The translations under genes were made by a program, and so were the position numbers. From contig QPGO01000027.1 in NCBI GenBank assembly GCA_008632985.1, positions 1 through 64,000 on the forward strand: a stretch of 64,000 nt of DNA, given 5' to 3'. Numbering within the stretch: position 1 is the first letter of the stretch; each line of letters begins with the position of its first letter. This document shows positions 7,452 to 64,000 of this stretch, piece by piece. The DNA is from Psammoneis japonica (taxonomy: Eukaryota). The notes beneath the pieces are model-generated. The model had not been told where the DNA came from and did no database searches. It worked only from the letters and a program-made list of their open reading frames with translations.

Positions 7452-8047
7452 TCGATTGATCAGTCTTGTTTACGACTTCGATTTGGCAATAGACGTGAGA
7501 CAGCAGAGGTATGTTCGTCGGCGAGTCGTCAGGGAGCAATCGATTGCGAATTGCGGGTAAAAAAAAAAAAAATCAAAAATTGAGAAAAGCGCGGGGAAAC
7601 CGGGAAACATTCTGAACGGGAGGCAATCAGACGCTACAGGGAGTTGCAGGAAAAAACGTCTCCGCATGGTTCCACGCGTTTTTTCCATACAAAAGGCACC
7701 AGCCCGCGCCGCAGATAGCTGGCTAGCTACCGTAGTAGGCTAGTGGAGAGAGTAGGGCCCTACAGGAACCCACTGTATGTACCGGGCGGCCGTACTGTAC
7801 TGTACCTACCAGAGAATGAGAGCAGACGATTACGACGACTGCCAGCATGCCGCACGTACGTCGTACGTGCAACAGCGAAAAGCCAAAGACGTGAGCAGCA
7901 CTGCTGTGCTCGTACTGCCGAGTTCATCACCGAGTCAAACTACAGTCTACTCTACTAGCTAGAGCAGGCCCTGCTGCTGCTGCAGTAGCAGCTGTGCTAA
8001 GACTGTTGTTGAAAGAACATTTTGTTGCACCAATCAGTTGCGAACAA

Positions 8048-9232
8048 TCACAAATGTCCCAATCTGTGCATTGTGTCAAATGCACGTGCATCCTGTCCGC
8101 TGGCGTCCAGCTCCCAATTGCAGCCAATGAGTCCAACACCATCGCCTGTGGCATCAATCAACTTGACTTTTGGATTCTCCATGGCGCAGCATGTTGAATC
8201 TTCCAACTTGAGGTCCACATGAATGATCCTGGACCCATCGCGACCACCCAACAAATGAACCTTGTTGATTTTCCTAGAGACCTGGATTGGCAAGGGCACG
8301 AGGGCTGTGGAAGACAGGACCTCAGAGTCAGACTGCCTCATTGAAGACAGCTCATCTGAAAGAGCTTCAAGGCGCTTGCAGATGTCACGGAGTTCATCAT
8401 CGCCACCATGGTTTCCCCCTTGGGCAGTGGCTTCATCAAGGAGAACTGCGTGAAGAGCGTCCATGTCCATGGAGTGCTGTGGCCACTGGGAAACGCAACT
8501 GAGCATCCACCCATTGCTCACAACAGACAGCTGGATGCCAGAAAGGTCCGTGGTGCAAACACCAGATGGAGCCACAACAACCAACACGACATGATTGGTC
8601 TTGGTGACAGAGTCCTTGCAAGCAGCTTGCAAAACCATGGGCTTGAAGCTTTTCCAAGAACCTCCTTGCCCACCACCACGTGCCTCCATCACAGAAGCAA
8701 CACCAGCTCCATTCACAACAGCAGCTGCATCGTTGTTGTTTGCAGGAGCTGGAGCCGATGCCGTCCGACGAGTGCTGTCAAGGCCACCCGAGAATGGCTC
8801 TTCGTCACCGTCGTCGGTGTCTGTGGCCAGATGAAAAAAAAGAACACCGCACGGCGCGGTCAAATGAAAATGCACGTGTCAGCAACACAGTGACGTCACT
8901 CACATTTGTTTCGCATGCATGTGCGAATGCGGTGAAAATCAAAACTCACCGTCAGGGTTCTCATTGCTGTCGTTCATCGTTCGATGAAGATTGAACCCGG
9001 TTTCGTCTTTGAGCCTGCACAAGCCAGTGCGGAACTTGTCCAGTGGATGGTGCATGAACTCTGCGCGCATCTGCTGGATCTCTTTTGGCGTCGCTCCAGC
9101 GCTTGCCCTGCCATCCATCAGCATCTCCTTCAAGAGTTTGCAGTTGGCAGACCCCTTGTGCCACACTGCTCGAAGGGGGCCGGCGGCCTCAGTGTCAAGA
9201 ACCGATTTGGTTCGTTGGTTGAGTTTGGGCAT
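8048..9232 (-). pseudogene. Two-exon ORF divergent from the transposase, probably the element's accessory gene; Tyr-less and mutated
   Basis: MPKLNQRTK..FMHHPLDKFRTGLCRLK, donor gtgagt near 8949, acceptor cacag near 8821, then ORF 8048-8875. No Tyr codons. Confidence 0.5.
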
Positions 9233-10147
9233 GGTTTCTTTGGTTTTCTCTTTTTTATGAGAGGATTGATGGTGCACAGTCAAGAGTCGTCAAGATCAGC
9301 ATTCGCGTTGACGGGCAGCAATGAGAACCCCATTTTTGAATGGGTCACGACAAACTCACCTCACCACTGTCCGCGTGATGCTCTTTTCAAATTTGAACAA
9401 ATTCCAACCGCCAAAATGAGATTTGAGAAAACACCAACCGCCAACATTGAGAAAGGGCCTCTTGACAACGAAGATTCCCTCAAGACCACACAAAAAACGT
9501 TCCGAGACCACACAAAAATTGTTCCCAAATCACACCCAAAACGATTTTCAGCTCCAGAACGATGACTTTGGACCATCTCAACTGAAGAATGAGTGGCTGA
9601 ATCCCAAGCTTCGGTGTGCATTTGCGACAGCACTGGTGGCAAACTGGCTCCTGATGTTTGTTTTGGCTTTTCATTGGCACATTTCCGTGTGCTTTTCGTC
9701 TGTGAAAAGGCGATTTCATTTTGATTTGTAGAATGAGAATGCTTTTTTAATGCACCACCAACCATGGATCATGGTTTTAAAATTCTGCATCACATGTTGC
9801 GTGCAAACCACTGTGTTAGTTGAGCTAAGAGCACGCGTTGGAATGGTTGTTCTGCCGTGTTCCGGTTGACAAAACGACGCCCAAATTGCCCATTGCGAAC
9901 GTCCCGAAGTCACCATTCGGAAACCACACCCGAATCGCATTTTTTTCGTACGGAATCTCACCAAAGGCCTCTTCCAATGAGAACCCCAACTGCGTGAAGA
10001 TGACAAAACACAATTGTCAAATGTCAAACAACTGCTGTGCTGCTCTCTAGAGCAGCCAGCCACTGCAGAGCAGAGAGCAGCTGCCAGCAGCAGAGACTGG
10101 CACAAACGCCAAAGCAACACACTGTGGTGTGCTGCCAATTGCTGATC

Positions 10148-11070
10148 ATGAGACTGCCCAAAGAGGCCACAGAGTGCTTGGCACAGACGATCATTCAGAA
10201 GCCAAAAGGGTCACCTGCAGTGTGGAAACGTCGGCTTGCATCATGCTTCTGTACCCCAGAAGAAGTGGCATCTGAGTTGTGGGGGCTTCTCGTTGACGAC
10301 GGGAAAATGCCACGAGGTTTTTTGCCCATTCACCTGCTCCACACCCTTTGCTTTCTCAAATTGCACGAATCTGAGACAGTCGTTGCTGGCATCTGTAATG
10401 AAATCCATGAAGACACGCTGAGAAAATGGGTTTGGGTCAGAATTCAACTTGTTAGACAGTTAAATTTGGCACGTGCCATTCCAGATGTTGCTCATGTGTG
10501 TGAAACAAATGGGCTGACACCTTGTTCTTAGATTCGCTGGGAAGACCGCTTCACTGATGATGACGGCAGCAGATGTTTGGCGACACTCGACGGCACTGAT
10601 TTCAGAATCTACGAGCCATCACCATTTGATCCAATGTGGTTCTCCCACAAATTCCACGGTGCTGGGCTGCGGTGTGAAATTGGAGTGTGCATTCAGACAG
10701 GGTGGATTGTTTGGGTCAATGGGCCGCACCCAGCTGGGTTGCCGGATCTGAACATTGCTCGTGAATGGATCATTGAAGAGCTTGAAGATGGCGAGATGCA
10801 TCTGGCCAACGGTGGCTGCAGCGACGGGAGCCAGCACAGCTCGACTCCATCCGGCCCAAGAAATGCAGACGAGGCCATGAAAACAACAGCAAGGGCAAGG
10901 CATGAGGCTGTCAATGGATGGCTCAAGCGTTTGGAGTGCTCAACAAAAGACACCGCCACGCGAAGGAAACACATTGCCATGTGTTTCATGCCGTGGCCAA
11001 CATCACACAGTTGGCCCTCATGATGGGTTGCTCACCATTTGATGTGGATCATTTTGACAACCAAAATTAA
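10148..11070 (+). mobile_element. PIF/Harbinger (IS5/ISL2EU-like) DDE transposase, inactivated
   Basis: Motifs LDGTDFRI, FSHKFHGAGLR(C)EIGV, GP(H)PAG.PDL, (H)LA(N)GG(C) and RARHEAVN. Intron 10469-10531 has a mutated donor (gcacgt). A 1-nt frameshift near 10931 precedes FGVLNKR..HAVANITQL..taa. Confidence 0.85.
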
Positions 11071-11923
11071 CAGCAGAAAGCATGTTGTCGCCAAGATGAT
11101 GTTGCCGCGAACGTTCCTTAATCTCGCTGTCGATGCAACGCCTCGCGAGTCGATCGCGAGCAAAAGCGAACCCCTCCTCCCCACCTGCCACAGGTGGACC
11201 TGCAGCAGGGCCCTGCAGCACTGTCGCAGGGCCCACAGCATGCGCCGGACTGCATCTCCGTGACGCACGGGCGGGTGGCGGCAGCGTGCCCGGGGATGAA
11301 AATGCACCCACCGATGACGCAATTGTGACGTGTGCTTCCCGCACTTTTTTGTGGCCAGCCTTGCGGGGTGCAGACAGACACCGGCAGTGCCTCAGTGCGG
11401 CACGCGCATGCATTTTTTTCTGATGATTCCACGCGCAGATGATGGGGATGCGACAGAGATGCCGATGCCGAGCTTCAAAACCACACTCTTGTCTCACACC
11501 CGTTGAAGCTTGTGGTTGGTTGACTCCATTTCTCTTCAACCAAAAGCACTCACTTTTTCCTCTTGCATGGCAAATTTCAAGATTCTCAGCAACAAAAATC
11601 AAAAGCACAAAACAGCCCTCTGTTCGTTTCCACGACAGACACACCCAGCATGACAACTGGCAGACAAGATGATGATGTTGTTTGCGGGGCAATGCGGCAG
11701 ACAAACAATGCTACAAAAAAAGCTGCCGCGTGTCACATCATCCGTGCCATCAAGCAGCAGTGCAACAATTGTTTTTTCCTGCAACTCCCAGTATGTGGTG
11801 GTAATGTATGACATGGATATAAATATATTTTATGATACTTTTTGCGATTTGCAGAATCCAAAACTCACATCTGTGTTCTCCAAATCTCTGTACCCGTTGT
11901 GCCATCTCAGAGATCAGATAGCA

Positions 11924-13545: not shown

Positions 13546-14604
13546 CTATCCATGGCTCAACCTAGCAGGCGCACGAGCTTCTTTCACTCTTCGTTCATAC
13601 TCATCGAGGTCGTCGTCTGTTGGAATTCGCAAGTCCGTGGCAGCAACCGTCTTTTTACAACGTGGATAACCCTTCCACACGACTTTCAACCGACCTCTCG
13701 GCGAGATCTTTCCCGTCTTAATTTGTACAATGTACGTGGTTCCCTTGTCATCAAACTTCCACAACGAGTTGCGCTCGAAAACTCCAGGCGTTGTTGCTCG
13801 ATGTTCTCGATGCAACAAACGGCGTTGCTGGGGGCGGCGTGCGCTTTGAAGGAGGACGTGCCGAATGACAGGTCGGCGGGACGCAGATGCTTCGCACCAC
13901 GCTCGACCGTGTGCCGATGGGTCGAAGCGAAATTTTGACTTGTGATTGCGAGTAGAGGCACGAGAGGCACGAGATCCTTTGGGATTAACCACTTGAGCGG
14001 TCAAAGCAGGAGGCGTGGGGCCCGACTCCATAATTGGTTGGTCATTCGACATTACTGTATTGTCGACATCTTCTTCGCTTTCGTTTGTGTGAACTTCTTT
14101 ATGTTCATCATCATCAGATTCTGAACGATGACTTTTAGCCGTGGAATGGTTGTCGGGCGAAAGGGGTACCAGCTGCTGGTCTTCAGCTTGCAACTTACTA
14201 CGTTTGGCTTCGTCTTCAGGTTGCACCTGAATACGGGACGTTTTCATACTCCTCCACAAATTCATAAACTTCACATGGTCGAGCAGTCCATTCAGTAAGC
14301 CTTTCAAAGACACGGTGCAGATTTGGTCATCCGTCATTACCTCTACAACCACAGCAGGTTCAACACCCCAGAAAACAAGGAACACGTCCGCCTCGTTCAA
14401 CTTGGGAAACGGTAACTCCTTGACTCGTGCGTACTCGCACCATCCCAAGAAATAGTCCATCCAAGACAATTCTCCTTTCTGAACACACTTGAGGAGAACA
14501 CGCTGAACGGTTGCAGCGGCTTTGTCGACCAATAGCCGTTCCTTGGGGAAATCAACGAAACAATCTCGAATGATACGATCGAGCAAAGAAAGCGACGTTG
14601 CCAT
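13546..14604 (-). CDS. Hypothetical protein, paralog of 4431-5633
   Basis: Same N-terminal block (LDRIIRDCF..WMDYFLGWCEYAR) and C-terminal block (RFDPS.HGRAW..VVWKGYPRC). Confidence 0.75.
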   Translation of the reverse strand: MATSLSLLDRIIRDCFVDFPKERLLVDKAAATVQRVLLKCVQKGELSWMDYFLGWCEYARVKELPFPKLNEADVFLVFWGVEPAVVVEVMTDDQICTVSLKGLLNGLLDHVKFMNLWRSMKTSRIQVQPEDEAKRSKLQAEDQQLVPLSPDNHSTAKSHRSESDDDEHKEVHTNESEEDVDNTVMSNDQPIMESGPTPPALTAQVVNPKGSRASRASTRNHKSKFRFDPSAHGRAWCEASASRRPVIRHVLLQSARRPQQRRLLHREHRATTPGVFERNSLWKFDDKGTTYIVQIKTGKISPRGRLKVVWKGYPRCKKTVAATDLRIPTDDDLDEYERRVKEARAPARLSHG

Positions 14605-15216
14605 CGTCTGACAAGGTATAGAGAGTATTCTCTTGCAAGGTTGTTGTTCTAAAGCTATGAAGGAAACACCGGGAAAATATTTGAGCATTATCATACAGAT
14701 TATGACAGATAGAAACAAAAGACTCTATGAAGGTCCGTTTGTGTTGTGTGTGAGTGCAATGTCGGCAGCACAGGTTTTGCGTTTGTTTGGTTCCACATGA
14801 TGTGAAAGAAAGACACAATAGAAACGTTCATGACCAAGTCGGAGAACTTTCCAACCATGTGCTCTCTAGAGAGCATAAAGTACTATTCGTATATGTTCTC
14901 AACACAATCAACGAGGAAAGGAGAAGAAGGAAGAGTTCCTGCCACAACCCAACAGCCGTTGCTGGTTGTGGCCTTTGAGTAGGTCGCGCTTTGTTGTGCG
15001 CATGCACGCGGTGCTGCGTTGTCGGTTTCAATCCTTCAATCCCGTTCACGATTGAACTCGAGAGACTGTGTGTGTGGCAGGCAGATAGCAGCATACTGTG
15101 AAAAATTCAGGCGACTGTGCTCTAAACTCTCTCTACCGACGTCGTACGTACGGTTCATTTATTCGACCGACCATGATAGCCGCCGCCGCTCCTGCCGTAA
15201 CCACAACAACCACATC

Positions 15217-18013: not shown

Positions 18014-19047
18014 CTATCGCTGCTGCTGTTGTTGTCTCTGTAGTCGCTCCTGCGCAAACTTTGATAGCTTCTTTATGGGAGGTGCGGTAGACTCTTGTGA
18101 TTGTATATTGTGTTGCACAGGGCGCTCCTTAACCACCCAGTAAAGACATCCCTATCTAGTTCTCGTCTTTCCCTGACTGGTGTTGCAGGCTTGAGCTCTG
18201 CCGCAGATCTTTGCCCTATACGGGGGATTTCTCGTACTTCGTTGGCAGTTTGAAACCCAACCTTCTTTTGCGAAACAGGTTTTGTTGTCGGGCGTACGGC
18301 ACCTTCTGTATCCTTCGGTTGTTGCGCAGTTCTTTTTTCGCGCTTTGTTTTGGGTTTCTTGTTGTTGCTGGAGAGAAAGCCTTTAGCCCACCCTTTACTC
18401 TGTAGTTTCTTAGCACTCTTCTTGTTAATTCGTTGGTTCTTCTCTGCCTCTTCTTCCAACAATGCTAATTCATCTAACCGAGCCGCCAAGGATCGGTATT
18501 CGTCGTCCGAAAGATTCCTTGCCGACTTTTCTGCTTCTTCCAAAACTGTCGGTGCGGTGGTGGACGTTATTGGCTTGGAGCTTGCAGTCCCTGCAGACGA
18601 TTCGGCGGCTTTCTTTTGTAAATACTCCAGTTCCTTTGCAACGTCTATGGCTTCTGCTCGAATTTCATTTCCCTGTTCATCGTATTCTTCTCGGATCTCA
18701 AAGTATGGCATGTGCTGTGATGCTTTCGGTTTGCCGTCGGGTCTATTATTAGGGATGGCCGTATCGGATGGCTGCTTTGGTTGTCGTTGTTGTTCTGGCT
18801 CCACAACTTTGGGCTCTTTGGACTTAATCAGCTTTTCAAAGTGATCTACAGCCTCCTCGCGAGTCATATCTACATAATAACCTTGCCCAAGGTTCACCAT
18901 GACTTGCTCACTCCTTTCGCTGTCAAGCTTGGGTTGCAGCGTCGCAGGGAAAAATGCCTGGGACGTCATGGGAACCATCACTTGTTGACCTATCAATGGC
19001 TTCTTCAAAATCTTCTGAACATCCTTACGCTGCTGCTTTTTCGACAT
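18014..19047 (-). CDS. URI1: URI1/Bud27-like unconventional prefoldin (one apparent 1-nt frameshift)
   Basis: Prefoldin-alpha segment VMVPMTSQAFFPA..VMVNLGQGYYVDMTREEA and EIREEYDEQG. The C terminus VVKER..KKLSKFAQER appears after adding one G near 18137. Confidence 0.75.
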
Positions 19048-21377
19048 GTTGCGAGAACCACCTACGATATGCACTGACTCACTCAATCCTCAAGTCTCAA
19101 ACGCCATTGTGACGTACTGCGATTTGCGTTGCGATGGATTGTACCGTAAGAATAAGTCGCAAGCCATCCGATTGGTCCGATGACCGATCCGTGCGTGCGC
19201 GTGCTGTTCAAACAGAGTTGACAGGTGGCAGGGTGGGTAGGTGGGTGCCTGTACGAGCTTAGCTCCGCTCCCGCATCTTCGTCATCGACTAAATCGGCTG
19301 GGGCGGGTGATGATGGGGCAAAAACTTCGAAGATGAAAGATGGATTAAAGATGACAGCACCGGCCCAATTGGTGACCTCAGAACATTGGGGCCACGAGCA
19401 AAGAGTGACTGCACCCTGCGTGCTGAAACAGATGAGAGGAGATTCAGACATGTGTTGAGAGTGTGGGTCTGGAGCAGCATCTGGGGCATGTCATGCTGCC
19501 ACAAAAGATGCCTTTTCAATGCACAAAGTGCCTTTTTGGTGTCTTTGGCACACCACACTGAGCCAGAAAAGGAGGGGGCGTGAGTGAGCATCCCTGTGCA
19601 AGAAGGCACCTCCACAAGAAAAGTTGAGCTCACGAGTGACAGCTTTCTGAGCAAAGCAAGACGTTGGAAATGATGTTTTTCCCAGTTTGTCACAGCTCTG
19701 ATGGAAACCTGGATGAAAGTGGAGACAAAGGGCCTCTCAACATGGGCTGCAGCTGCCCTGCATCCATGTCTGACACACCGGTGAAGACTGGGTGCATGAG
19801 AACCAAGACAAGTCAACAAGAAGGGCCTTGAGGAGAGACGACGGTCATTCCAACATGCAAGTGTGAGAGGGGTGGGTTGCCAGTGAGCACAGCTGAGGGA
19901 AAGATGGTCAGATCCCAAGCAACCTTGTGGCCAGCAGAGGTGACTCACCTGGCAAGTGTCCTGCACATGACATCTCTGGTGTGCTGTGCCAGAGGAGCTC
20001 ACTCAGTTGAATTGACAGAGGCTGCAATGCCAAACCACATTCTTCTCACAATGAGAGTGTCATCAGCTGCACCCAACACCTGGCACTTTGCCTCCATGCA
20101 GCCCTGCAAACCACAATGCCAGAAATGCTGGTCCCCCCAAAAGGCCAGATTTGCAAAGAAGAAAATTTGATGGAGGACCAAGTTGCTGCTTGCCAGCAGA
20201 ACATCTCTGACTGCTGAACTCTTCTGTCTGAGGTCGTGTTGTGATCTGCCACAGTGGACATCACAGGCTGGCATGCTGGAAAATGTGTGCACAAAGCTCT
20301 GTGCACACACGGGCTTCAACCGTGGCAAAACATCACTTTGAAACAGTCACTCAGACATGTGCATTTATCTGTGCTGTGCTCAAGTTGTTTCTCAAACAAG
20401 GCAGTCATGAGAGCAGTCACACTGCACAAGTTGTTGTTGCCCATTTGGCACAAAACTGTGCTTCACAAAAAGGGAAGAATGTTTGTGGGTGCTCATCATT
20501 TTTCCCAATGCAGCCCTTTGGTGTGTTGCAAAAATTGCATCTCTTTGCAGAAAGGTGCTTGTGTTGATCCCATGCACACACTCCACAAGGACATTTCACA
20601 CCATCTTCCAACACATTTGCTGCACATGATGATCCGAGACACCAGCACACACTGCTGCCTGTGCACTGCTGTCCTTCTCATGACCACAAATCTCATGACC
20701 ACAACCCCCACTTGTGTCTTTTTTCTGTGAGCAAGCATTGCAGCTCCCACACTTTCAACAATGCTGCATGGTGAAGGATCTGTTTGTTGGCATGACCACA
20801 TTCTGGACTTTTTTCACAGCCACAACAACAGGCCAAGCTTCTCAATGAGAGGAGCCTCCAGTGGACAGCCATGCTCTTGGAGAGAGTTGTTGTCACATGT
20901 GGCAGCAGCAGCACAGATGTGGAAGACAAGCAAACAGTGGATGATGAGACAAGGCCAACCCAAGCACATCCTTTGCTGTTCTTGGTGAGTGCCTGGTGAT
21001 GACATGGGAGCCAAGCAGCCATGACCAACCAGAAATGGCACCCCATGACAAAGAAAATCCTCCTGTGTCAGGCTTTGCCAGGCCAAGCAATCTTGTGGCT
21101 GACACATCACTGGCTTTCTTTTTCAGTGGGAGCTTTTGCCTGATCAACATGTGGGGTGGGATCTGGAGAGCCTCTGCACCCCCCCACCACCACCATTTCA
21201 GTGCTTTGGATCTTTTGTCCACTGCACACATTTTCACATGATGTGTGTTGCGTGCCCTGTTGTGAATTTTTTGGCAAGCATGGCACATCATGTTTGTCTG
21301 GTGCTTTCATCTCACAGCATCTTGGGACATTGTGGACAATTTGCTCACAATTTTGTGCTTCTTTTGGCCTCAATCCT

Positions 21378-52033: not shown

Positions 52034-52068
<35 letters not shown>

Positions 52069-52159: not shown

Positions 52160-52935
52160 ACCATGCTCCAGACACAAACTTGCAAGGTGTTTCTCTGATG
52201 TGTGCTGCTCACTTGCCCCCACACTGTGTCTTCATGTGAGCCTCCAATTCTGGAGTGACCCAAATCACTGACCATCGCTGACTGAGTTGCAAGTGCAGTG
52301 GCAGCCTCTTGTGAGAAATGCCCAGCATGGTTGACACAACATGCCATCCCAAACAAACCTGTGGCACGGAGTTTGCCCTTGTCAGTGGGTTCATGCTTGA
52401 ATGCCAAAAGCTGCAGCTTGCCCCCCTGCTGAAGCACTCCCACCAGCATGGCAAGAACAGCCACTGCTGGGCAGCCCAACCCACTTGGCCACTTGGTTCA
52501 GCAGGCAGTCCACCATTCATTGTCGAGTGAGTCACACACAGACCCATGTGCAGCAAAATGAAAAGGAGGAGACCAACAGCGATTGCCATGCTCCACAGCA
52601 TTGGCCCACCACCATTGATGGTGAATTGACTGACTGCCCAGCAACTTCTGCACAAAGTGCTTGCTGCTGCATGGGGAGTTTGAGTCGATCACCCTGAGTG
52701 GGTGTGGTGCCACAGACAGCACCAAATTTGCAGCAGAAGCACTGCACAAATCATTCTCTGATGTTGCTGTCAAGGAAACAAAGAGCAACTGTGCTGACAA
52801 GAGAGTGGGTTGCAACTCTTGCAAACTTTGGACCAGCAAAGATTGCTGGCACTGCATGGTTGGTTTGATGGGGAAAGACAGCAACAGCGCCGCCAGTGGC
52901 AGATTCTTTTTTTGCTTTGGATGATGAGAGCATGA
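52160..52935 (-). pseudogene. Hypermutated copy C of the DUF1295-like gene
   Basis: Colinear with 49950-50730: MARYINHTG->MACCVNHAG and KYGDK->QCGGK. Confidence 0.92.
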
Positions 52936-55249
52936 TGAGAAGAATTTTCTGCTGCTGGCACATGGCAGCACCTGTTGAGAAGCTCAAAACCAAAAGGAGG
53001 GCAGCTCCACAAGTGCACTTTTGTGGCCATTTGTGTGCCATTTTTCATGCGATGGCCTGATGTGTTGGAACACATGCATTCGCAACATCTTTTTCACTTC
53101 AAGCGCACTTCACAAAATGAGCACAGCAACATTTGGCAATCAGAGCAAATGGCGCATGTTGTTTGTTCAATCTTGAAGAGCTCAAATTTCTTGTTTTTGT
53201 CATGATGAAGTGCAAAGATTCAACACTGGCAAGGAGAAGGTGATGACAGAAGGCAACATCAAACATTGATGCCAGTCACAGTGCCATGTGCTTTGTTGAG
53301 CTCAAACAATGCTCATTGTCAACTTTTCAAATTTCCAAGTGGGGGGCATGGAGAGCCAAGAGAGCTGCACTCAAGGCCACAGCACAGGCTCTCTCTGTTG
53401 CTCAAAAAGGTACCGCTGCAAACACAACTTGCAGTCTTCAAAGCTGGTTTGGCACCTGAAAATGCAGCAGCCATGTGCAGTGTGTGAGCGCACCCAGCCC
53501 CTGCCATGCTCCCAGTGCAGAGTCATGAGGGGCTGTGTGTGGCACATCAGAGCTGGAGGCCAGCTCCAGCTCCAGGTCCAGATGGCATGCATGGGTGTGC
53601 GATCCACCAGTGGCCCAGCTTGCATTCTTTGGCACAACAAGTTCCTTCAAATTTTTGCTTTTTTTCCAGCTTTTTTCTAGAAACAAACTGAGGTGCAAGT
53701 GTGCACAAAACTCTCCTTTTTGTGTGCACTTGCATTTTGATTTTAGAACAAACAATCAACCAAAAACAAAAAAAGGCTTGTTGCGCCAAGTGCAGTTTTG
53801 AGAAATTGTCCTTGTTTGCATGAAAAAAGTGGTGAGCGCACACCCACTTTTTCATTTTTTGGAGGGTTGCTCATGGGCAAGCCAGTGCTTGCAGATGAAA
53901 GCACGCTTCCTTCTGGCAACAAGTGCCGTCCTCAGGCTGCATCATGTTTTTCAAGTGTTTCCAAACCCTCAGAAACTGCACCTTGAAATTGCACTCTGCC
54001 CTCTCTGGCAAGCACAAATGCACTCAAAACAGCTGTTTTTCACAGCGATGCTGACTCAATTTGTGCAAATCATGCAGTCTTTCCACTCAATTTCTTGCCT
54101 GCCTTTTCAATCAATGTTGTGTGGGCTTTGTCAGGCATTTTGTTTTGCAACAACAGCAGCAATGAGCCAAGCACCCCACTTCATTGAAATGCCCAGCTTT
54201 GTGTTGAAGAGATCAGCAGAGGCCACTCTTCACACAACATGCAGCCAGAGTTGGGCTCTTGGAAACAACCAAACAAGTGTGGTTTCTCCCGAGTCTCCAA
54301 GACAATCTTTGTTCTTTTTGCATGGACTTTTGAACAACTGGCAACATTGCCCAAGTGTCATTGCATGTGCGCACATCTTCCAGTGCAGTGCCTGACGACA
54401 GCGCAGCAAGGTGGCTTGCAGACACAAAGACCTTGAAGATCACCTGAATTTTTGGCTCCAGTGATGGCTCTCAACATCTCCAGCTGCCACCTGTGGTGCT
54501 TGTCTTTAACCTTTCCCCCTCTTCATCTGAAAATCTTCTTCATTCTTTTGCTGACTCTGTTGTGATGAAAGCTGGCAATGGCAAGCTTGGCTTTCACAGT
54601 GTGTCAACATGGCAGTGCAGCCCTGTGCAGTGCAAGTGCCAGCACAGCTCAGGAGCTGCCTTGTGCCAGCCAGCAGTGTGATCCAGCCGCAGCTTGAAAA
54701 GGTCTTTCTTTGCTTTGTCTTCTGGAAACTCTTCCTTTGAGTGCCCCATCAGAGTGCTGCTCTGCAAAAACATGCACACACCAGCACAGCTCAACCCCCT
54801 AAAATTCTTTTCATTGTCCTTGTCACTTGACAATGCTTGCACCAAGTGGTGGTTGTGCCACACCCCAAATGTCACTTCAAACAAAACTTGCAGTGGCAGT
54901 GCATTTGTGGGCTTGCACAGAGGCCAAGCTTGAGCAACAATGGCCTGTGCCCAAGGGCACAGAAGAGCTCAGTTGAGCACTCATCTTTGTTGGAAGGAAG
55001 CTTGGGAATGTTGTGACCCTTGCCAGTGGCATCTTCAGAATGACAGTGTTTTGTGACATCACAGCACCCGTTGTGCCAAGTGCAAATGCTGTTTTGACAA
55101 TTTTTTCATCAACTTTCCTTCTTGTGGCAAATTTTTTGTCAACCTTTTTCCTCCAAGCACCCTCTGAGATGATTGAAGGAGGCGGCAATTTTTTGTTTTG
55201 CACCAATTCTCTGCCAAAAGAGGAGGGTTGGTTGTGCACACAAACTGGG

Positions 55250-55645
55250 CAAACAAACCTTTTGACGCTAAAACTTCAAACTCCTCTCTTCTTTCCTGGC
55301 AGCTGCTGTTGTGCACAGCATTGCTGAAAGAAAGAGACAAAGTTTCTGCCATTTTTGAGTTGCAACAATCTAATGCTTCAGTGTCAGCAGCACTGTTCTC
55401 ATGAAATTGAAGCATTGCACTCTTCAAATGGCTGTCTTTAAAGCAGCCTTTGTGCAAACAAACCTTTTGACACCAAAATTTCAAACTCATTTCTTCTTTC
55501 GAGACAAAGTTTTCTTTAAATCATTGCCTGCCATTTTGGAGTTGCAACAATCCAAAGCTTCAGAGTTGGCAGTGCTCTTCTTGTTCAATTGAAGCATTGC
55601 ACTCTTCAAATGGTTGTCTTTGAAGCAGACTTTGGGGCCAAACAG
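55250..55645 (-). repeat. About 195-bp tandem duplication, apparently of coding origin
   Basis: Two copies reading (C)FKD[SN]HLKSAMLQ..EALDCCNSKMA. Confidence 0.75.
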
Positions 55646-55847
55646 CTCATCACAAAAATCATTGTCTTTCACTCTAATGTGTCTGAGTGAGAAACATTTT
55701 GCTTCAATGGTGCATTGCCAGGACAACTCAAGGGCTCATTGGAGTTGCCAGCTCCATTTTACAAAGTGCAACAGTGTTGTCTCAGTCATTTTCCACTGGC
55801 CTCTCTGCCTCCAATGACCGCTGAAACATTTTAAGCCAGGAAGGGCA

Positions 55848-56906
55848 TTGGCCAGCCATGTTGCCACATCTCTTGCCTTTTTGCCTTTGCTGCCAGCTGT
55901 GCTGAGAGAAGGTCACGCCGACACTCCATCACACCTGTCATCCAGACACTCAGATCCAAGCTTGGTGAGATGGAACCCTCCAGCAGGTGCTGCTTCTTGT
56001 CCGGGGTGGATCCACTGCAGCAACAATGTGAGACAGAGCACTGCTTTGTTTTTCTTGGACACAAAAACTGAAAGACCAAGCTCTGTTGCATTAAGTTGTC
56101 GGGGAGGTGCTGTCGCATTGGTGGGTGGGGAGATGATTGCGTTTGGTCAGCATCTTGCGGGTGCTTTTTTCTCGTTGGTGTCCATGATGTTTGGCTTGGC
56201 CTGCAGGTTTGCGCCCAAAAAGTCTGCACGACTCTTTTGTGGTTTCAACGACAAGGACAAGACAACACGAAGAATTTTAATTCGATTTGTTGGCTCTCTT
56301 GCTTGTGGAATCAGTTTGACTGCTGCGCTTGGCATTGCATCCGAAGTCAAGGCGCCAGGTCACCTTCCCGCGGTGCCTGAGATTCGACAAGCATTGGGAA
56401 TCGGCGTTCTTTCTCAAATTTTCTTTCCATCCCAGTGTCTCTTCATGGACCCACCTTCAAAGCTTCGATCAACCAAAATGGGTTTGAGTGTTGCTCTCAT
56501 TGAGAGTTTGCTTCTGGTGCTCAGTCTTTCAACTGGAAAGCTGTTGCCCGATCTGTTCATCACGTGCGATCTAGCCGCAGTGTCGTTCTTGAGCCTGTTG
56601 TCATTTTTCAAGCCAGCTGCTGTCTTTGAGGAAGACCAAACTCCATCTGCACATGAAAGCATGTTTGCTTGGCTTGCCGCTGCACGCAAATTGACACAGG
56701 CTGTCCTGTGGGCGTCCTTGTGGAATCCCAAAACAAACCCATTGCCGTCGGTTGCACTCGCTTCTTTGGCGTGGGTGGCAGCGTTGATTCACATTGCATT
56801 TATCGGAGGGGATGTAAAGGAATGTGGCGCTTCTGTTGTGGCCCACATGGCCATGATGGCATCCGGTTTGGTGGTTGCTGCGGGAGGTTTGCATCTGCTG
56901 GGATGA
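55848..56906 (+). pseudogene. Multi-pass membrane protein gene; frame open but Tyr-free, probably hypermutated
   Basis: 352-aa ORF with many hydrophobic helices, an RGG-type motif and no Tyr, inside domain 4. Confidence 0.55.
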
Positions 56907-57891
56907 AAAAAACAGGATGCTCTCCAGCTGGCAACAGTCGCTGCTCTTTAGACATGTCAATGCTTCCAAACATTGTCATGCTGTGTAAACAATCTAAATG
57001 CAACATTTCCTGCACTTGCTTCTTCGATCGATCGATCGCATCGGCAAATCTTCGATGCGTGCTGGAGTTTGCGATGAATTCACAAAACCCTTCATGGCAC
57101 AACCATCTAAATGACATCACGACCCGTCTGTTCTTCTGTCGAGGAGTTGCACGGTCGCGAAATGTTGGGATGTGCCCAACCACACGATGACCAAGATCAC
57201 ACAATCGGCAGCGAGTGCTGCGTTTGATTGCAGTGAAAGAGGGAGAGCAGGTGTGTGCCGAGTTCGAAGTCCCTGGTCAACGCACTCTTCAGGTGTCCTC
57301 CCATGAGATTTTCCTTCCAATCACCAAAGTCGTATCGCGCTTTGATGACACTGCTCCATGTGGACACTGGAAGCCACCGTCCTCGCACCTTGGGGTTCAC
57401 GCTGACGGCGCGGAAAGCTTTGAGGACGGTTTTGGGGTCGACCATGGTTCGTCACCTGGCTGGAACGACATGGCCAATCTGCAGATGTTTTTTGGATACA
57501 CCCATCTGGTTTTGGCTAGGTAACGATGACTGGGTTAGTCGAAAAACGGCGGCGGAGTGTGCATCATTGTGTCGCGTCTCTGGTGGCATTTTTGTCGTGC
57601 TTCCAGCACGGCGTGTTTCGCGTGGTGGAGCTTCTATTTGAGGATAAGTCGAAGTAATCATATTTTTTCTACCAGTGTTACGCATTTCTACGTTGAGCCA
57701 CAAGCGCGCGAACTAAGCTTGTACAAATCTAACATATAAAAGAAGCTCAGACACAGAATCAACCCAACACCACACACCCAACCCCACCGACAAGACAACC
57801 ACCCTGCTCAGCGATCTGTTCAACGCTCAACGCTCAACGCAGAATCAGAACGAACAAAATCAATCAGCAGCGCTGCTTTATTGCTCGGACC

Positions 57892-59064
57892 ATGGCGACA
57901 CCCGAAAGCCCTTCCACCCCTACAAGCAAGCCCCCCCAGAGCCTTTGCACTCCGCTGAGTAGGCTCCCATATGCATCACCTGTTTCGAGCCACAGCAGTT
58001 CGAGCAGCCGCATCTCAGATCGTGACGAAAAGGTCGGGAGTCCTGACGAGGTGGTGTTGAGTCATGGCGACAACAGGAAGTGTCGTGACGACGTGGTGAG
58101 GGAGGCAGCCCAAGCCCTCGTCAAAGCTGCAGACTTGTACAAACAACAAAATGAACAAGCCGTTCGGAAAAAGGAGAGCTTTGATGGCCTTGTCCAAGTG
58201 GACATTTCTAGTGGTGAATCTCTTACCATTGAAGAGCTTGGCGAAGCATGCGTTATTGCGAAGCGCAGCGTGGGAAAACTCAAGGTGCTTGCGTCATCTG
58301 GTCAAGTTTTTATTCGTCAAGTTGCATCCGGCTATGTACATGGGCAGGCAGCAGTTGAGGTGCTTGGAGAAATTCGTAATGCTACCGTGCCTTTTTCGGA
58401 TCCTCCAAGTGAATTCGTAGGCGTGGGGACCGATGGAATGTACGGCAATGACTTCATATCTGCGCCTGATGTCACCGTGCAGTCTCTCGGACTAGAAAAT
58501 GGGCAGCCTACGGGAGATTCGGAAGTTGGCCCACTCTTTTTTGCCGAGGTTGAGCACGGAAACCGCTCACTGCCGGAACTTATCCGTCACCTTGGTGTGC
58601 TTCTTGCGAACTATCCTAACCTCAATGGGGTGCTGGGAATCAAGGGCGAACATGATCGTAATGGCAACAGAGTCAATGCACTCATTATGATTGAATGGCG
58701 TGACATCACAGCTGGGGAACGTGAACCTCATGTGACTCACCTAGTCGACTTTGGACCGCATCCATACTCAGACACGAGAAAGAGAAACGTCAACAATGCG
58801 GTTACACTGCCGCTCCCCCCAATGGGTGAGGTGGCGCAGAGCGGAGTGCATGGTGCAGGAGCAGTGGATCATTTGCCTGAATGGATGCGGTTTCCTAACG
58901 GGATGGATGGGGGCAATCCGGCAACTATTCACATTTCGCCCACGCTGTTGCTCGCGGGTGCGCACTCTGTAGGCGACAATGGCACAGTCATTGACATTCC
59001 GGGGACTGCTCTTGGAGCTAACATCAATCTCGCACGCCTGGCTCGCATATATGGTAGAGGATAA
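57892..59064 (+). CDS. Uma2-like PD-(D/E)XK restriction-endonuclease-fold protein
   Basis: Intact 390-aa ORF with SGYVHGQAA, SAPDV and PLFFAEVEHGNRSLPEL. Confidence 0.6.
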   Translation: MATPESPSTPTSKPPQSLCTPLSRLPYASPVSSHSSSSSRISDRDEKVGSPDEVVLSHGDNRKCRDDVVREAAQALVKAADLYKQQNEQAVRKKESFDGLVQVDISSGESLTIEELGEACVIAKRSVGKLKVLASSGQVFIRQVASGYVHGQAAVEVLGEIRNATVPFSDPPSEFVGVGTDGMYGNDFISAPDVTVQSLGLENGQPTGDSEVGPLFFAEVEHGNRSLPELIRHLGVLLANYPNLNGVLGIKGEHDRNGNRVNALIMIEWRDITAGEREPHVTHLVDFGPHPYSDTRKRNVNNAVTLPLPPMGEVAQSGVHGAGAVDHLPEWMRFPNGMDGGNPATIHISPTLLLAGAHSVGDNGTVIDIPGTALGANINLARLARIYGRG

Positions 59065-59180
59065 TAGGTGCTTTGGGGCTAAGAAGCTGTTGGGAGTGCA
59101 CTTTGTAGTCAACATTGCTGTGCAGCATTTAGAAAAAGTGTGAGCAAAAATCCCATGTGTAATGCAGTGGGGCGGATCCT

Positions 59181-59620
59181 CTAGCATCTAATCCTTTTCA
59201 GAACAACAACATAACAGCTGGGCACCACGGTGGGCGTGACGGCATCAACCCGAAATCCACAACTTCTGACAAACTTGTCCCACTCTGCAGCTGTTCGAGC
59301 GCCTTCTCGTCCCACCACCAGCATCAACAGAGTGTCTGCTGGGAACGGCAACTGGCTTGTTCTGTCTTTGTCTGACTTGGTTGTGTTTGTCAGAGCTGCT
59401 TCAGCAACAACAACTGGTCCATCCTCCAGCAACACCGAGTGGCGCGTTTGCAAGATTTGTTTGGAGTTTTCCTCACCCCAGTCATTGCACAGAACAACAA
59501 TGTGTGTCACAAAGATGGCTTCACACGATGGAATCATTGACAATTCTGACACAGGCCCCTCCCTGAAACAAAGCTCACCATGTCTTCATTGGTGGAGTCA
59601 ATCACACAAAAAGACTGGTG
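59181..59620 (-). pseudogene. O-methyltransferase (Methyltransf_2) C-terminal remnant
   Basis: IFVTHIVVL(C)NDWGEENSKQIL and DTLLML..GREGARTAAEWDKF..GFRV. Confidence 0.7.
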
Positions 59621-60774
59621 CACACAGCCAGGAGTCTTGCTGCCACTTGTGCTTCACCATCTTTGATTGACTTTTTGTGAAAACTTGATGCTTCTGATTG
59701 GTTGGCTCACCGTGCCCTCTGCAGTGCAACAAGCCTTGGTGCTTCCTTGTGCTGAGTTCTGCAGTGTCAACACCACACAGCGTGGCTCCTCTTGGGCCCT
59801 TGGCGCTCTCTGAAGAAGTGCTCCAGCTGTCTCCACCTCGAAGCTGAGCCGGTCATGAAAAATTTGCCCAACTTTTGTTGGCTGGGGGCAGCTTCATCCT
59901 CCATCTTGACAATGATGTGCCCACTGCCCCCAAGATCCATCAAGGGCTCCAGTGCCCACAGCCCTCCAGCCATGCCCTGCCCCTCCCAGCCCCGGTGACT
60001 CTGCTGGCCTCGCGCACCCGCGCCACCCATCAGAGCCTGCAACACCCCAACAAATGTGCGTGCTGCTTGGTTTTGTTTTCAAATTTTTTTGTGGCCAATT
60101 GTCAATTTTTTTGCAAAGATGTCAACATTTTTTTGGTGCCACAATGGAGCATTGTTGACGTTTGGAAACAGTTTCTGCTGGACCCTCACACGTGGTGCAA
60201 CAAAGAGAATCTTGCTGATCAAGACACGCCTTTTGAAATGTGCCGCGAGAAGGGAAGTGGCAACAAGTGTTTTGTGGCCGGCAAGTGGTGCAAGGCGACT
60301 CACAAAGCTTGAATGATGGATCCTTCCACTGAGATGCTGGAGTGCATTGTGGCCCACGTCGACAAGACTGGCCGGACAGCTGGAGTGGGTCTCTTGTGCA
60401 GTGAACCCATCGTTGCCACCTCTGCTCATGTGGCATTTGGAAAATGGTCCAACAACAACACATGGAAGCCACTGGGTCATGTCCCTGACCTTGAGAAAAT
60501 TTCGTTGTCTGCCGCAAAGAGGCTTTCTAGCCAGCACAAAGGAGAAAAGGGTCGCCCTCTCAGGGGTCACCACAAGTGCCTTTGATCCATCCTGGAGCCA
60601 CTTCATGATGCAGTGCAAAAGGGTGGATTCAATGCCTGTGTCCAAAGAGGGGACGAGATCCGTTTTCTCAAAAAGTTGCCCCCACCGTTTGTCTCATCAC
60701 AGGAGGTGGAAAGACACTTTGCTTGAAGAAGGGGCACATCATCACCCCGGAAAACCTTTGCACCAGTCCGCTCT

Positions 60775-61005
60775 TGCAGCTTGGCCACAAATGGTTTGCC
60801 CCTCAACGAGGGTTGTTGAATGGGTGCTGCTTCTTGGGACCGACCACCTCTGTCTCATGGGGAAACAATCAAAACGTCAACTGCAGGAGTGCAGCTTGGC
60901 CACAAATGGTTTGCCTCAACGAGGGTTGTTGAATGGATGCTGCTTCTTGGGACCGACCACCTCTGTCTCATGGGAAAACAACCAAAAAGTCAACTGCAGG
61001 AGTGC
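60775..61005 (+). repeat. About 115-bp tandem duplication
   Basis: tgcagcttggccacaaatggtttgcc..cttcttgggaccgaccacctctgtctcatggg..gtcaactgcaggagtgc occurs twice. Confidence 0.9.
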
Positions 61006-64000
61006 TGCAGGCTCTGATGCCCTGCGCACTGGCAGGTGCCACTGGAGGCCCTGCCACCCAGCGCAGGTCAGGAGAAGGCACCCGCGGCACTGGCAAAGCT
61101 GTCTCCACTCCTTGCATGTGTTGTTCAAGTTTCGCAGGAAGTCAAGTGTGCTGCGCTCCAGTGGCCTCAGCCGCGTGGTGCAGCCCGTGCTTGAGATGGA
61201 CCCTGGTGGCAGCACGATGCGAGCAACGAGCAAGAGGAGTGGGGTTGGCCACTGTCCTCACAAAGTCATGGCATCATGCACCCCAGAACCTGTTTGCACT
61301 TGCTGCGTGAAGGCACACTGCAGTTGGCCGTGGGCTGCATCTCACGCGGCTGGCTTTTCTCGTTTTGGCCACGTGCTCCTCCCAAGAGCAAGAAAGGAGA
61401 AACCATCCAAGTGACATTGACAGTGTCAATCGCTCCCACCTCTCCCTCCCTCTGGCCCTGACATCTAGCACAGGTTGGGAGAAGGCACCTGCAGCACCAG
61501 CAAAGCCATCTCCACTCCTTGCACTCCCGCGGACCGTGGCGATTTCTGGGCGGATTTGGATTGCACACTTAAAAAAATTGCACGGGGCAAGAACGACACA
61601 CAGATGCTTTTTTTGTGCCAAGTCTTACACAAATTTCCCGTGGGGGGCATGGTGTTTTGCCATCGTTGACATCATCGTCGTCGAGACCCACACAGGGTGA
61701 GCCACTCGGGATGTTGTTTGTCATTGTCTGTGGTGTGTGCACCCAGCAATGTTGTCAAAACCCAGGAGTGCCTGATTGTGGTGAGGAAAGTGCGCCTTTT
61801 GACAAATGAAAATGTGCGATGTGTGCTCCAACCCATGTTTGTGGCCCAAAAACGACAACAGTCAAAGAGGGGCAGGCTGTGACAAACACCACATTTTGAC
61901 ATTTTAGTTTCTTGGCTTGCTCATGCTTGTCCACCCCAGTCATTAAAGAATCTTTAACATGGGTGCAATCAACAAGCACACCAACTCCACTCTTGGCATG
62001 GTGCAACACAACAGCAGCAAGATTGTTCTTCATGGCATCCAATGCTGACACTCCTGCTGCTGGTGCCAGCACTGCTGTTGACAAATCATTGTGCTTCTCA
62101 GGGAAAAAAATCAGATTTTCTTTCAACTCTCCTTGCCAAAAACACTTCTCAAAACCAACCAACAATCATCCTGTGAAAGTGCACAGTGGCCCTCCACTGG
62201 CTGCATGAAAAACTTCACAAGAGGATGCCTGTGAGCTGCTGGCAAAAGATTTGCTGGAGGTGTGCAGCCGCTGCTGTTGGAAGGATCCTTTTTTCCTTTT
62301 TTGCAGCAGCTTGAGCCAACATGCCCGCTGTGATTAAATTTTGCATTGAACAATCACAGCGCCAGCTGCACCCCCACAGCACCAGCTGTGTTCTTAATCA
62401 GAAGTGTGCTGTCCACACACACACTTGTGTGTTGTGAAACAAAAGTGCTCTAGAGAGGTTGCCAAAGTCAGGGATCAAATTTAAGAACAGGGGGTCAGAG
62501 GTGGCCTCTCTGGCATGCAGCTCTAAATGACAAATGCAGCATGCCAAGTGACACAGAAAAATGACAAAAATGAGAACACAACCAAGCACAATCAAGCATG
62601 CTGACTGTGCACTTGTGTCATGCAACAAGTGCACTCAAAACAGGTGGCCCCTCTTTGCAGCTCCAAATGGCAAACACAACACCAAGCAACACAGCAAACA
62701 AAATCAAAAACAATGATGCAGCCAGCAACAATGTCAAGTGTGCTTGTTGCACACTTTTTGCACTGTGTGACAAGTGTGCACACTCTCCAGAAAAATTGCA
62801 AAGATGTGGAGTTTTCTGTGACAAAAATGACTGGACAGAGCCAGCATGGCCACATTGCAATGACAACAAGTGGCTTCAAAATCAAACAATGGACTGTTGT
62901 TTGCAAAGTGACAGGCACAACAAAGCTTTGCAAAAAGGCAACAATGGTTTGCTGTGTTGTGCCCAGTGGTGTGATGTGCTTGTGTGCATGGACGCCAATG
63001 TTCACAAAAGCTGCACATCACAAAAGTTGCTTTGAATGACATCTGCCACTTTTCTTCTTGTGACAGAATGAGAGCCTTTGAGCATGTGAGTGAGGACATG
63101 CACAATCTTGAAGTTTTTGTCTGTTGATTTGAATGACCAGAAGAAGACAAAAAATGTGAGCTTTGCCAGGTAAAGACAAAGATGGGCTTCATTCTCCCTG
63201 GGGCTGGACTGGCCAGTGAGAGTCACAATGACAACAATGAAAACCAAAATGATGCTGGAAACAATTTTTTTAATGCTTTGCACCAACCACCAAAAACTCT
63301 GACAACTTGATCAGGCAGATCTGTTCAAACATCATCTGCTCTTGATGACCACAAACTTGGAAAAGTGGGGTGTGAAATGGGGCAATCCCAGCTGAAGAAC
63401 TGTTGTGTGGTCCAATGTGCAAGCTGAACAAGCTGGCTGTTTTTGTGCCAGAAAATTGCTTGTTCCACTCCAGGGGTGATGCGCCAAAGTGCACTGAAGT
63501 GCATCATCCCCAGCTCCGCTGACTGTTCATTTGGAGAACATTGCTGCTCCAGCTCAGAGTTGAAACCGGCTTGACAAGAAGCACCTCCCAGTTGGCCTGC
63601 ACCAAGGGGTGGAGAGGCAGCCATTGTTGCAAGCAAAAATGGCAAGATCCCACCAGGAGGTTGACTGCCCTTTTGAAGTGGTGTCAGTGTGTGTGTGCTT
63701 CACTTGTCTGCTGCTTGCACATTGCCACAAACAAACAACTGGCTGCCCAGCAGGACACGTTTTCCACCCCCATCAAGGCAGAAAACTTGTCATCAGGCAT
63801 GTCATCTGCAGGCAAAGAACAGTGCAGCCACAACAAGAGAGGGTGCTCCCTTGCAAGTGAGAGCCCTGCTTCAGCTGGACATGATCATTGTGGTGCAGGA
63901 ACATCATCTTCCTTTTTTTTGTTCAAATGCCAGGGTTTCAAACAGCTGCACAAAACAACAGAGGCCCGTGCAGGGTCATGGATGTCAGTTGGGTCCATGA

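Follow-up and report, generated by a model that had tools for sequence, protein, structure and literature searches.

In the 64-kb stretch of Psammoneis japonica DNA considered here (GenBank assembly GCA_008632985.1, contig QPGO01000027.1, positions 1 to 64,000, referred to below as the window), the dinucleotide 5'-TA-3' (TpA) is nearly absent from more than half of the sequence. We are highly confident that this absence reflects a real hypermutation of TpA to TpG or CpA, acting at the DNA level and confined to particular regions. The direction of the change, its dinucleotide specificity, strand symmetry and hierarchy of sequence contexts, its timing after insertion and its dependence on position rather than on homology are all observed in the window, where a partly erased Ty3/Gypsy retrotransposon and an intact gene of the DUF1295 family with two erased copies provide states before and after the change.

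Distribution of TpA in the window

Depleted domains were called by a two-state hidden Markov model (HMM) on TpA occurrence and were then adjusted with counts per 100 bp. This yielded six TpA-depleted domains, amounting to 35.8 kb or 56% of the window. A preliminary description of this DNA had claimed that five domains covering over half of the window were without TpA; the proportion stands, while the number should be six. The first domain (D1, 7999-11791) contains 18 TpA, with a TA observed/expected ratio of 0.08, and has retained most of its CpG (CG observed/expected 0.69). D2 (19347-21382) is old, with 1 TpA and 14 CpG in 2036 bp, and flanks the Gypsy insertion on its left. D3 (22317-30630) includes most of the retrotransposon and is depleted only in part in its last portion (29588-30630); beyond the element (26554-30630), it consists of an old CpG-poor flank (26544-27981) and a younger repeat that keeps CpG (27982-30630). 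D4 (37431-47773) is mostly old, with 18 TpA in 10.3 kb, D5 spans 50974-57496, and D6 (59213-64000), with 14 TpA, extends past the end of the window.

For the window as a whole, observed/expected ratios are 0.32 for TA, 1.46 for CA and 1.44 for TG. When composition was computed on the 34.8 kb of depleted segments assigned by the HMM itself, the TA ratio was 0.06 inside versus 0.61 outside, while CA and TG reached 1.70 and 1.69 inside versus 1.16 and 1.15 outside. CG was also lower inside (0.42 versus 0.98), and the G+C content was ~0.49 on both sides. Over 128 windows of 500 bp, TA observed/expected was bimodal, with 69 windows below 0.25, two at 0.25-0.35 and 57 at 0.35 or above; a single mode, which the preliminary description had named as grounds for giving up its claim, is thus not seen. 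In the same windows, TA correlated inversely with CA+TG (r = -0.83). The longest run without TA measured 2865 bp; 200 simulations of the window with a first-order Markov model reached at most 550 bp.

The edges are abrupt, as the TA count per 100 bp switches between 0-1 and 4-12 within one bin at every edge. Together with the bimodal TA distribution, this is the confinement to particular regions as seen within the 64 kb. The edges that the preliminary description had placed at 7960, 11790, 30630, 47770, 50890, 57600 and 59100-59220 all lie within ~100 bp of those found here (7998, 11791, 30630, 47773, 50973, 57496 and 59212), but that list had omitted the edges at 19346, 21382/22316 and 37430. 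A motif of ~57 bp flanks the DUF1295 gene (49487-49545 and 50945-51001), and its second copy spans the edge of D5. Two of the five TpA in this copy have become TG, two are kept and one has another outcome. As the copy is only partly erased, this edge is fuzzy over a few tens of bp.

A retrotransposon erased in part

A complete Ty3/Gypsy retrotransposon with long terminal repeats (LTRs) lies on the reverse strand at 21378-26553. It carries TG..CA ends, a 4-bp TCCT target-site duplication and the RVT_1, RT_RNaseH, Integrase_H2C2 and rve families, and its reverse transcriptase (RT) matches the Ty3 RT 4OL8 (E 3e-36). The family is high-copy, with a summed depth of 6000-10000 versus ~58 for unique DNA, corresponding to roughly 100 or more copies. 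The 3' LTR, adjoined by the polypurine tract, occupies ~21378-21756 and the 5' LTR ~26175-26553, both on the reverse strand. Given the target-site duplication, the TG..CA ends and the polypurine tract, this is a single insertion, the LTRs of which were identical on arrival.

The two parts of the element have since diverged sharply. Its 3' end, comprising the 3' LTR and the integrase C-terminus (21378-22316), is unmutated, with a G+C content of 0.41, a TA observed/expected of 0.91 and 78.8 TpA per kb. In the remaining 4.2 kb (22317-26553), which hold the 5' LTR, gag, RT, RNase H and the integrase N-terminus, only 7.8 TpA per kb are left, such that ~90% were erased, and CG observed/expected is 0.85. 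The LTRs differ at 31 of 380 positions. At 25 of the 30 TpA sites in the low-coordinate LTR, the high-coordinate LTR reads CA (14 sites) or TG (11 sites); the other five are shared, and no change in the reverse direction was seen. CpG changed at only 1 of 24 sites and the remaining sequence at 5 of 272, meaning that this young LTR lost 83% of its TpA versus 4% of its CpG and 1.8% of other sites. As both LTRs share the TCCT duplication and both flanks belong to one old erased domain, the process acted on the element where it had inserted. CpG-poor DNA gives way to CpG-keeping DNA at the ends of the element (21382 and 26543); the element thus landed in old DNA that was already without both dinucleotides and later lost TpA but not CpG.

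The proteins of the element tell of the same change. The pol frames remain open in the erased part, with Tyr being replaced by His or Cys. The ten Tyr of Ty3 RT align to three His, five Cys, two Phe and no Tyr in the Gypsy RT, the catalytic motif YLDD aligns to HVDD, and the RT frame holds no Tyr in 276 residues. In the integrase frame, the erased part (364 residues) has 2 Tyr, 19 Cys and 16 His, as compared with 5, 1 and 5, respectively, in the unerased part (178 residues). When metagenomes were scanned with the unmutated integrase end, only four distant relatives were found (40-43% identity, on short contigs), with TA observed/expected of 0.67-0.87 and G+C of 0.38-0.46, in agreement with the unerased end of the element; these serve as a composition baseline only. 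The replacement of Tyr in the RT and the TA-normal relatives imply that the TA-free state is the derived one.

Comparison of an intact gene with its erased copies

The DUF1295 gene (49826-50800, reverse strand; PF06966, E 3e-13) lies in a gene island between D4 and D5 and represents the untouched state of two erased copies, at 42550-42799 in D4 and 52211-52956 in D5. Its open reading frame (ORF) has a TA observed/expected of 1.01, with 42 TpA, 18 of them across codon boundaries. As TpA is kept also at silent sites, the gene was never exposed to the mutator, rather than being merely rescued by selection on the protein. Relative to this gene, the copy in D5 has changed TpA to CA or TG at 32 of 35 sites, CpG to TG or CA at 39 of 46, and other positions at 79 of 569 (13.9%), while the copy in D4 has changed TpA to CA or TG at 18 of 21 sites and other positions at 5 of 168 (3.0%).

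When these two pairs are pooled with the LTR pair, 86 ancestral TpA sites are obtained, of which 40 became CA and 35 TG, six were kept, three became GA, one CG and one TC. Transitions thus dominate, with 75 of the 80 changed sites being converted to CA or TG. In bulk composition, the change has raised the G+C content of erased DNA from 0.41 to ~0.48.

These pairs also reveal what selects the DNA to be mutated. Of the two LTRs, one was spared and the other erased, and the DUF1295 gene was spared as well, with two of its copies being erased; position, not homology, therefore decides.

Other repeat copies read in the DNA sequencing run agree in direction. Among the 40 places listed of the 339 that differ, the window carries CA or TG where the other contig carries TA in 17 and the reverse in one, and in three of the 40 listed places the window and the other repeat copy carry opposite outcomes, CA and TG. 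In D3 beyond the Gypsy element, with a depth of 360-1760 at 28.3-30.3 kb, other copies read TA where the window reads CA or TG. To judge from sequence, the partly erased portion at 29588-30630 and the 5 of 30 TpA left in the LTR would be compatible with a recent or ongoing process.

Properties of the mutational process

Each site is hit only once. A CpG outcome was seen in only 1 of 86 sites, even though 80 of the 86 changed, since the first transition removes the target of the other strand. In none of the three pairs does the order of CA and TG along the sequence depart from random (runs tests, p = 0.96, 0.51 and 0.30). Across the domains, the imbalance between CA and TG in bins of 100 to 1000 bp has a variance of 1.07-1.33, lower than in gene DNA and no more dispersed than binomial. 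Neither the runs tests on the three pairs nor the imbalance bins across the domains thus contain strand-coordinated runs. Such a random strand order speaks against a mechanism moving along a single exposed strand.

The process does, on the other hand, discriminate between contexts. Among the 128 TpA left in the domains, those with a preceding T or a following A are over-represented. Relative to normal DNA, the density of TTAA is 0.65 (34 sites versus 41), making this tetranucleotide nearly immune, and is followed by CTAA/TTAG (0.28), CTAG (0.16), GTAC (0.04; 6 sites versus 112) and ATAT (0.00; 0 sites versus 75). TATA is found once in depleted DNA versus 50 times in normal DNA. The same order of tetranucleotides holds within the Gypsy element, when the erased part (22317-26553) is compared with the unerased part (21378-22316). 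An additive model in which the contexts on the two strands are combined reproduces the mixed classes. As for the base that is read, the likelihood on 50 informative sites leans to the base 3' of A over that 5' of T by 13 log units, with both models fitting poorly.

In the genetic code, TpA conversion turns TAA and TAG into CAA, CAG, TGA or TGG and turns no sense codon into a stop. TA-free DNA thus keeps TGA as its sole stop codon and fills with long spurious ORFs in all six frames. Indeed, the domains carry 292 ORFs of at least 70 residues in 34.8 kb, a higher density than that found elsewhere (155 in 29.2 kb). The longest in erased DNA, at 55818-56903 and 60317-61411 (both forward strand), each exceed 360 codons and had no homologue in two very large protein searches; we treat them as by-products of stop-codon loss. 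Gene finders will over-call such ORFs, and this should be considered when DNA of this kind is annotated.

Loss of CpG in the same domains

CpG loss is patchy, with 19.7 kb of the domains being CpG-poor (CG observed/expected 0.10-0.27) and 16.1 kb retaining CpG. CpG-poor DNA is nearly always TpA-poor as well, as seen in 43 of 44 CpG-poor windows of 500 bp, the sole exception spanning an edge. Decay of methylated CpG resembles TpA erasure in that CpG has turned into TpG or CpA in the same domains, as at 39 of 46 sites in the old gene copy. It differs in that it can't remove TpA and in that it is slower here (1 of 24 CpG versus 25 of 30 TpA in the young LTR). As 16.1 kb lost TpA but kept CpG, the loss of TpA needs a separate process, and CpG decay is not the whole footprint. 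The simplest model is of two clocks in one compartment, namely, a fast erasure of TpA and a slow decay of methylated CpG. Judged from base composition, strong CpG decay may serve as an indirect proxy for past cytosine methylation. In diatoms, transposons are reported to be CpG-methylated in a manner dependent on DNMT5a (PMC9998398).

What the erased DNA contains

The targets are of mixed origin. The Gypsy element and a weak relic of a DDE transposase are foreign, fragments of dynein, DUF1295 and O-methyltransferase genes derive from the host, and ~25 kb are unidentifiable. The transposase relic (DDE_Tnp_4, PF13359, E 1.2e-4, below the curated cut-off) lies in D1 at 10532-11020 on the forward strand. 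D4 contains, besides the DUF1295 pseudo-copy, a fragment of 70 residues from the AAA1 region of a dynein heavy chain (37902-38378, reverse strand; PF12774, 55 bits), in which GC aligns to the GY of dynein. At the edge of D6 lies a relic of an O-methyltransferase C-terminus (59184-59585, reverse strand; PF00891, E 1.1e-8, 35.1 bits, above the cut-off). D5 also includes a copy (53159-53304) of the upstream region of the gene at ~37.1 kb.

Of the 292 ORFs of this length that the depleted domains hold (at least 70 residues), 277 were scanned with Pfam, and only six of these had any family at E <= 0.01 (2 of 146 and 4 of 131 in two batches). The 15 omitted ORFs belong to the Gypsy element, and three of these were scanned separately. 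Within the batch of 131, the O-methyltransferase relic alone, of the four ORFs with a family, was above the curated cut-off. No viral genes were found among the Pfam-scanned ORFs of the window. Likewise, no deaminase domain was found among the scanned window ORFs of at least 70 residues. Rfam and tRNA scans gave no match.

Some rearrangements in this DNA were also noted. The segment of D5 at 52030-53335 joins a copy of the DUF1295 gene (49826-50800) to the copy of the sequence upstream of the 37.1-kb gene (37090-37290). As the two sources are not adjacent today, their joining suggests an old segmental duplication or a capture of host DNA. Short tandem duplications are found at 60775-61008 (a unit of ~115 bp), 55246-55644 (~180-205 bp) and 47300-47640 (~120 bp).

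Genes and domain edges

Genes recognized by Pfam outside the domains encode an ABC1 kinase, a DnaJ protein, an NmrA-like protein, a methyltransferase, a prefoldin, a GNAT acetyltransferase, a uracil phosphoribosyltransferase and the DUF1295 protein. The preliminary description had stated that all intact housekeeping genes lie outside the domains, and every intact gene that Pfam recognizes does so. The normal DNA outside the domains is not, however, genic throughout, as one TA-normal island (21383-22316) is no gene island but consists of the 3' end of the Gypsy retrotransposon, left unmutated. The smallest gene island (57497-59212, forward strand) measures 1.7 kb, lies between two erased domains and contains one conserved gene without a Pfam family (ORF 57892-59064), for which 29 homologues were found, at no more than 70% identity. 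Among protein clusters, the product of this gene is nearest to fungal ones of unnamed proteins, and the ABC1 kinase to those of Streptophyta, Bacillariophyta and Haptophyta.

The footprint ends at roughly 150-1100 bp from the nearest ORFs. The edge at 59212 lies 148 bp beyond a stop codon and that at 11791 ~140 bp ahead of the start of the NmrA domain. Those at 19346, 47773, 50973, 57496 and 37430 are ~170-530 bp from the nearest start codons. The edge at 30630 is ~870-1100 bp from the nearest ORF, while at most ~810 bp separate that at 7998 from the DnaJ ORF. Next to the genes, promoter and intergenic DNA is TA-rich up to the domain edges.

Two further features of the TA-normal DNA should be mentioned. 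D1 is flanked by two paralogous genes without a Pfam family (4239-5633, forward strand, and 13546-14724, reverse strand), one on each side and inverted relative to one another. Their identity is ~71% over 270 and 186 bp, and neither is depleted in TA. In addition, an ORF without a Pfam family in a gene island (31498-32415, forward strand) shows a contig depth ~4x the unique level in run X1 and a summed depth far above its neighbors in a second run, X2, which covers parts of 27.7-35.0 kb only, and does so very unevenly. This ORF may thus be a repeated or otherwise over-represented sequence without TpA erasure.

Proposed mechanism and alternative explanations

In the reading that we favor, DNA would arrive or be duplicated and would then undergo TpA-specific A:T-to-G:C hypermutation in place. 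Each 5'-TA-3' would be turned into TG or CA by a single transition on either strand, whereby the site is destroyed, and this would occur much faster than CpG decay or background mutation. The action would be limited by position to a non-genic, presumably silent compartment, and would end a few hundred bp from genes. Missense changes, such as those from Tyr to His or Cys, would disable transposon proteins without new stops being created. The chemistry would be the enzymatic deamination of adenine to hypoxanthine at TpA, by analogy with what has been proposed for Bigelowiella natans (Mettrop et al., bioRxiv 10.64898/2026.01.13.699255), and the targeting cue would be a silent-chromatin or methylation state. 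Adenine deamination guided by silent chromatin is a tentative proposal, to which we would not quite lend even weight on its own. Taken as a blend with the far more secure hypermutation, the account as a whole is the best explanation that we can offer and is probably correct.

Several findings weigh against this reading and should be considered. As TA is palindromic, A-to-G on one strand is indistinguishable from T-to-C on the other, and a route through thymine fits equally well. Recognizable transposons make up only ~6 kb of the 35.8 kb erased, the rest being unidentifiable or fragments of host genes. The 0.94-kb TA-normal end of the Gypsy element is flanked on both sides by erased DNA of an old domain, which speaks against chromatin domains being the only cue; episodic action in tracts, gene conversion by an intact copy or a chimeric assembly could each account for it, and episodic, tract-wise action is what the above preprint suggests for B. 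natans. Finally, the link to cytosine methylation is not one-to-one, as seven of the nine margins that face genes lost TpA but kept CpG. These are the margins beginning at 7999, ending at 11791 and 30630, and at 47510-47773, 50974-51808, 56100-57496 and 59213-61707, with those at 19347 and 37431 being the exceptions. Either the youngest insertions adjoin genes or the zone of TpA erasure reaches farther than that of cytosine methylation. The earlier view of the footprint as a permanent record of silenced chromatin that stops near expressed genes is accordingly upheld only in part. The footprint is indeed mutational, permanent and non-genic, its ends lie at the above ~150-1100 bp from ORFs, and position decides, but the unerased Gypsy end and the seven margins counter a simple equation of chromatin domain with footprint.

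The alternative that survives best concerns the other half of the base pair. Here, the T of TpA would be modified by an enzyme in silent DNA (e.g., hydroxylated to a 5-hydroxymethyluracil- or J-like base) and would mispair with G, resulting in T-to-C changes. Erasure of TpA alone, on both strands and by a first hit that destroys the site, is equally compatible with such chemistry, and dinoflagellates do carry 5-hydroxymethyluracil preferentially at TpA and TpC. Nonetheless, we know of no such thymine modification in this lineage. In addition, the sole experimental report of the signature, that in B. natans, favors an ADAT2-like deaminase, although as a hypothesis only. We therefore consider thymine-side chemistry to be rather improbable.

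A process triggered by homology, resembling repeat-induced point mutation (RIP) but with different chemistry, would recognize repeats by pairing and then mutate them. The identifiable targets, namely, a high-copy Gypsy element, duplicated gene pieces and a transposase relic, are those that such a process would be expected to hit. Yet the two LTRs, which were identical at insertion and are equal in copy number, differ 25 to 0 in TpA changes. Moreover, over 730 bp are common to the parental DUF1295 gene and an erased copy, and yet the gene has a TA observed/expected of 1.01, silent positions included, while RIP, according to the RIPCAL abstract, mutates both partners. These asymmetries make a homology-triggered process unlikely.

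It could also be asked whether any dedicated system is needed, as a replication or repair bias in late-replicating or compacted DNA might slowly strip TpA in the absence of selection. All of the erased DNA is non-genic, and its old segments are without both TpA and CpG, in keeping with such a bias. However, the speed and specificity seen in the LTR pair (83% of TpA versus 1.8% of other sites and 4% of CpG) are too extreme, an abrupt edge falls inside one element, and promoter and intergenic DNA, which is unselected, stays TA-rich up to the edges. In B. natans, moreover, the process is reported to be episodic and ~1000-fold over background. Such a bias is thus a slightly poorer candidate still.

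Editing before integration, by an ADAR- or APOBEC-like activity on RNA or on reverse-transcription intermediates, would suit a retrotransposon as the best-preserved target, and the Discussion of the preprint notes that ADAR favors U before the edited A. But the LTRs of one integrated element differ, both strands were hit (14 CA and 11 TG) and no strand-coordinated runs are seen. The erased DNA, furthermore, also includes a weak relic of a DNA transposase, copies of gene fragments, a copy of non-coding upstream sequence and whole flanks. We accordingly give this explanation very little credence.

Nanopore assemblies contain systematic miscalls at methylated motifs, and a modified base at TpA might have been miscalled as G or C. 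Such a sequencing or assembly artefact is equally implausible, as contigs built from exact 31-letter words at a depth of ~58 in an accurate-read DNA run, which may be the window's own source, showed 0 differences over 19000-21405 (a single contig, unique depth 57.8), 0-4 over 26524-28343 and 2 over 37410-38999, and as real mutation fits both the Tyr-to-His/Cys pattern in the proteins and the copies that are erased in part.

Comparison with known systems

There are hardly any records of sequence-specific A:T-to-G:C editing that occurs naturally in nuclear DNA. In the literature that we searched, the signature was found reported solely in the 2026 B. natans preprint, and no report for diatoms or stramenopiles was found. 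The process described here is therefore best set beside both that report and better-known systems.

As described for Neurospora and other ascomycetes (PMC2621366, PMC7296669), RIP is similar in being dinucleotide-specific, in degrading transposons and duplicated genes, and in leaving sharply bounded domains beside normal genes. The two nonetheless run in opposite directions. RIP converts CpA to TpA and renders DNA AT-rich, while here TpA is converted to CpA or TpG, with an increase in G+C from 0.41 to ~0.48. Stop codons arise through RIP but can't arise through the process here, and RIP hits both partners of a duplication, while here a parental gene and one of two LTRs were spared. RIP is also premeiotic and depends on an enzyme of the RID/DNMT4 type. 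DNMT4 relatives are reported to be present in many diatoms (PMC9998398). The APOBEC and ADAR systems likewise impose deamination-type transitions on invading nucleic acids, and ADAR is described as preferring U 5' of the edited A. Their substrates, however, are RNA or single-stranded cDNA, and the clusters that they leave are strand-coordinated, while integrated double-stranded DNA of any origin was mutated here, on random strands.

The closest parallel is that of B. natans. In two integrated viral regions of that alga, from a giant virus and a virophage, 230 of 231 new mutations are reported to be A-to-G or T-to-C, all on TpA (Mettrop et al.). Their rate was ~1000x the background, they arose in only some of the mutation-accumulation lines, and an ADAT2-like adenine deaminase was suggested. 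As here, TpA is converted to TpG or CpA in confined regions with the rest of the genome being normal, and the long-term result is low TpA with high CpA+TpG. The preprint also reports that coding sequences poor in TpA are enriched in the Pfam families of reverse transcriptases and DDE endonucleases. The two cases differ in kind of evidence and in extent. In B. natans, the process was followed in real time in two single-copy viral insertions, with mild depletion (Rho TpA 0.45), while the window holds a saturated record, at 0.06 over 56% of its length, in a different organism and in a retrotransposon, duplicated fragments of host genes and unidentifiable DNA. Sharp edges near genes, the asymmetry between LTRs, the near-immunity of TTAA and the nested CpG decay are seen here and not in the main sections of the preprint.

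The window thus adds another case, and a much more saturated one, to a type of hypermutation that was described only very recently, and it supplies several mechanistic constraints. It presents the end state together with internal controls, in that the mutation is saturating, confined by position, strand-symmetric, context-dependent and separable from CpG decay. An enzyme to be searched for should read T-A as its target, spare TTAA, hit each site once and show no strand processivity. More speculatively, and in our view doubtfully, a nuclear DNA adenine deaminase dedicated to genome defense might read 5'-T-A, spare TTAA and be recruited to silent chromatin, with active genes setting its bounds. 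The same system might then operate in at least two distant branches of the stramenopile-alveolate-rhizarian (SAR) group, namely, this alga and the rhizarian Bigelowiella, as an old and widespread counterpart of RIP that was overlooked since G+C and ORFs stay intact. If stramenopile and rhizarian algae do share the process, it would constitute a second major class of mutational genome defense, and could be a natural source of DNA adenine-editing activity.

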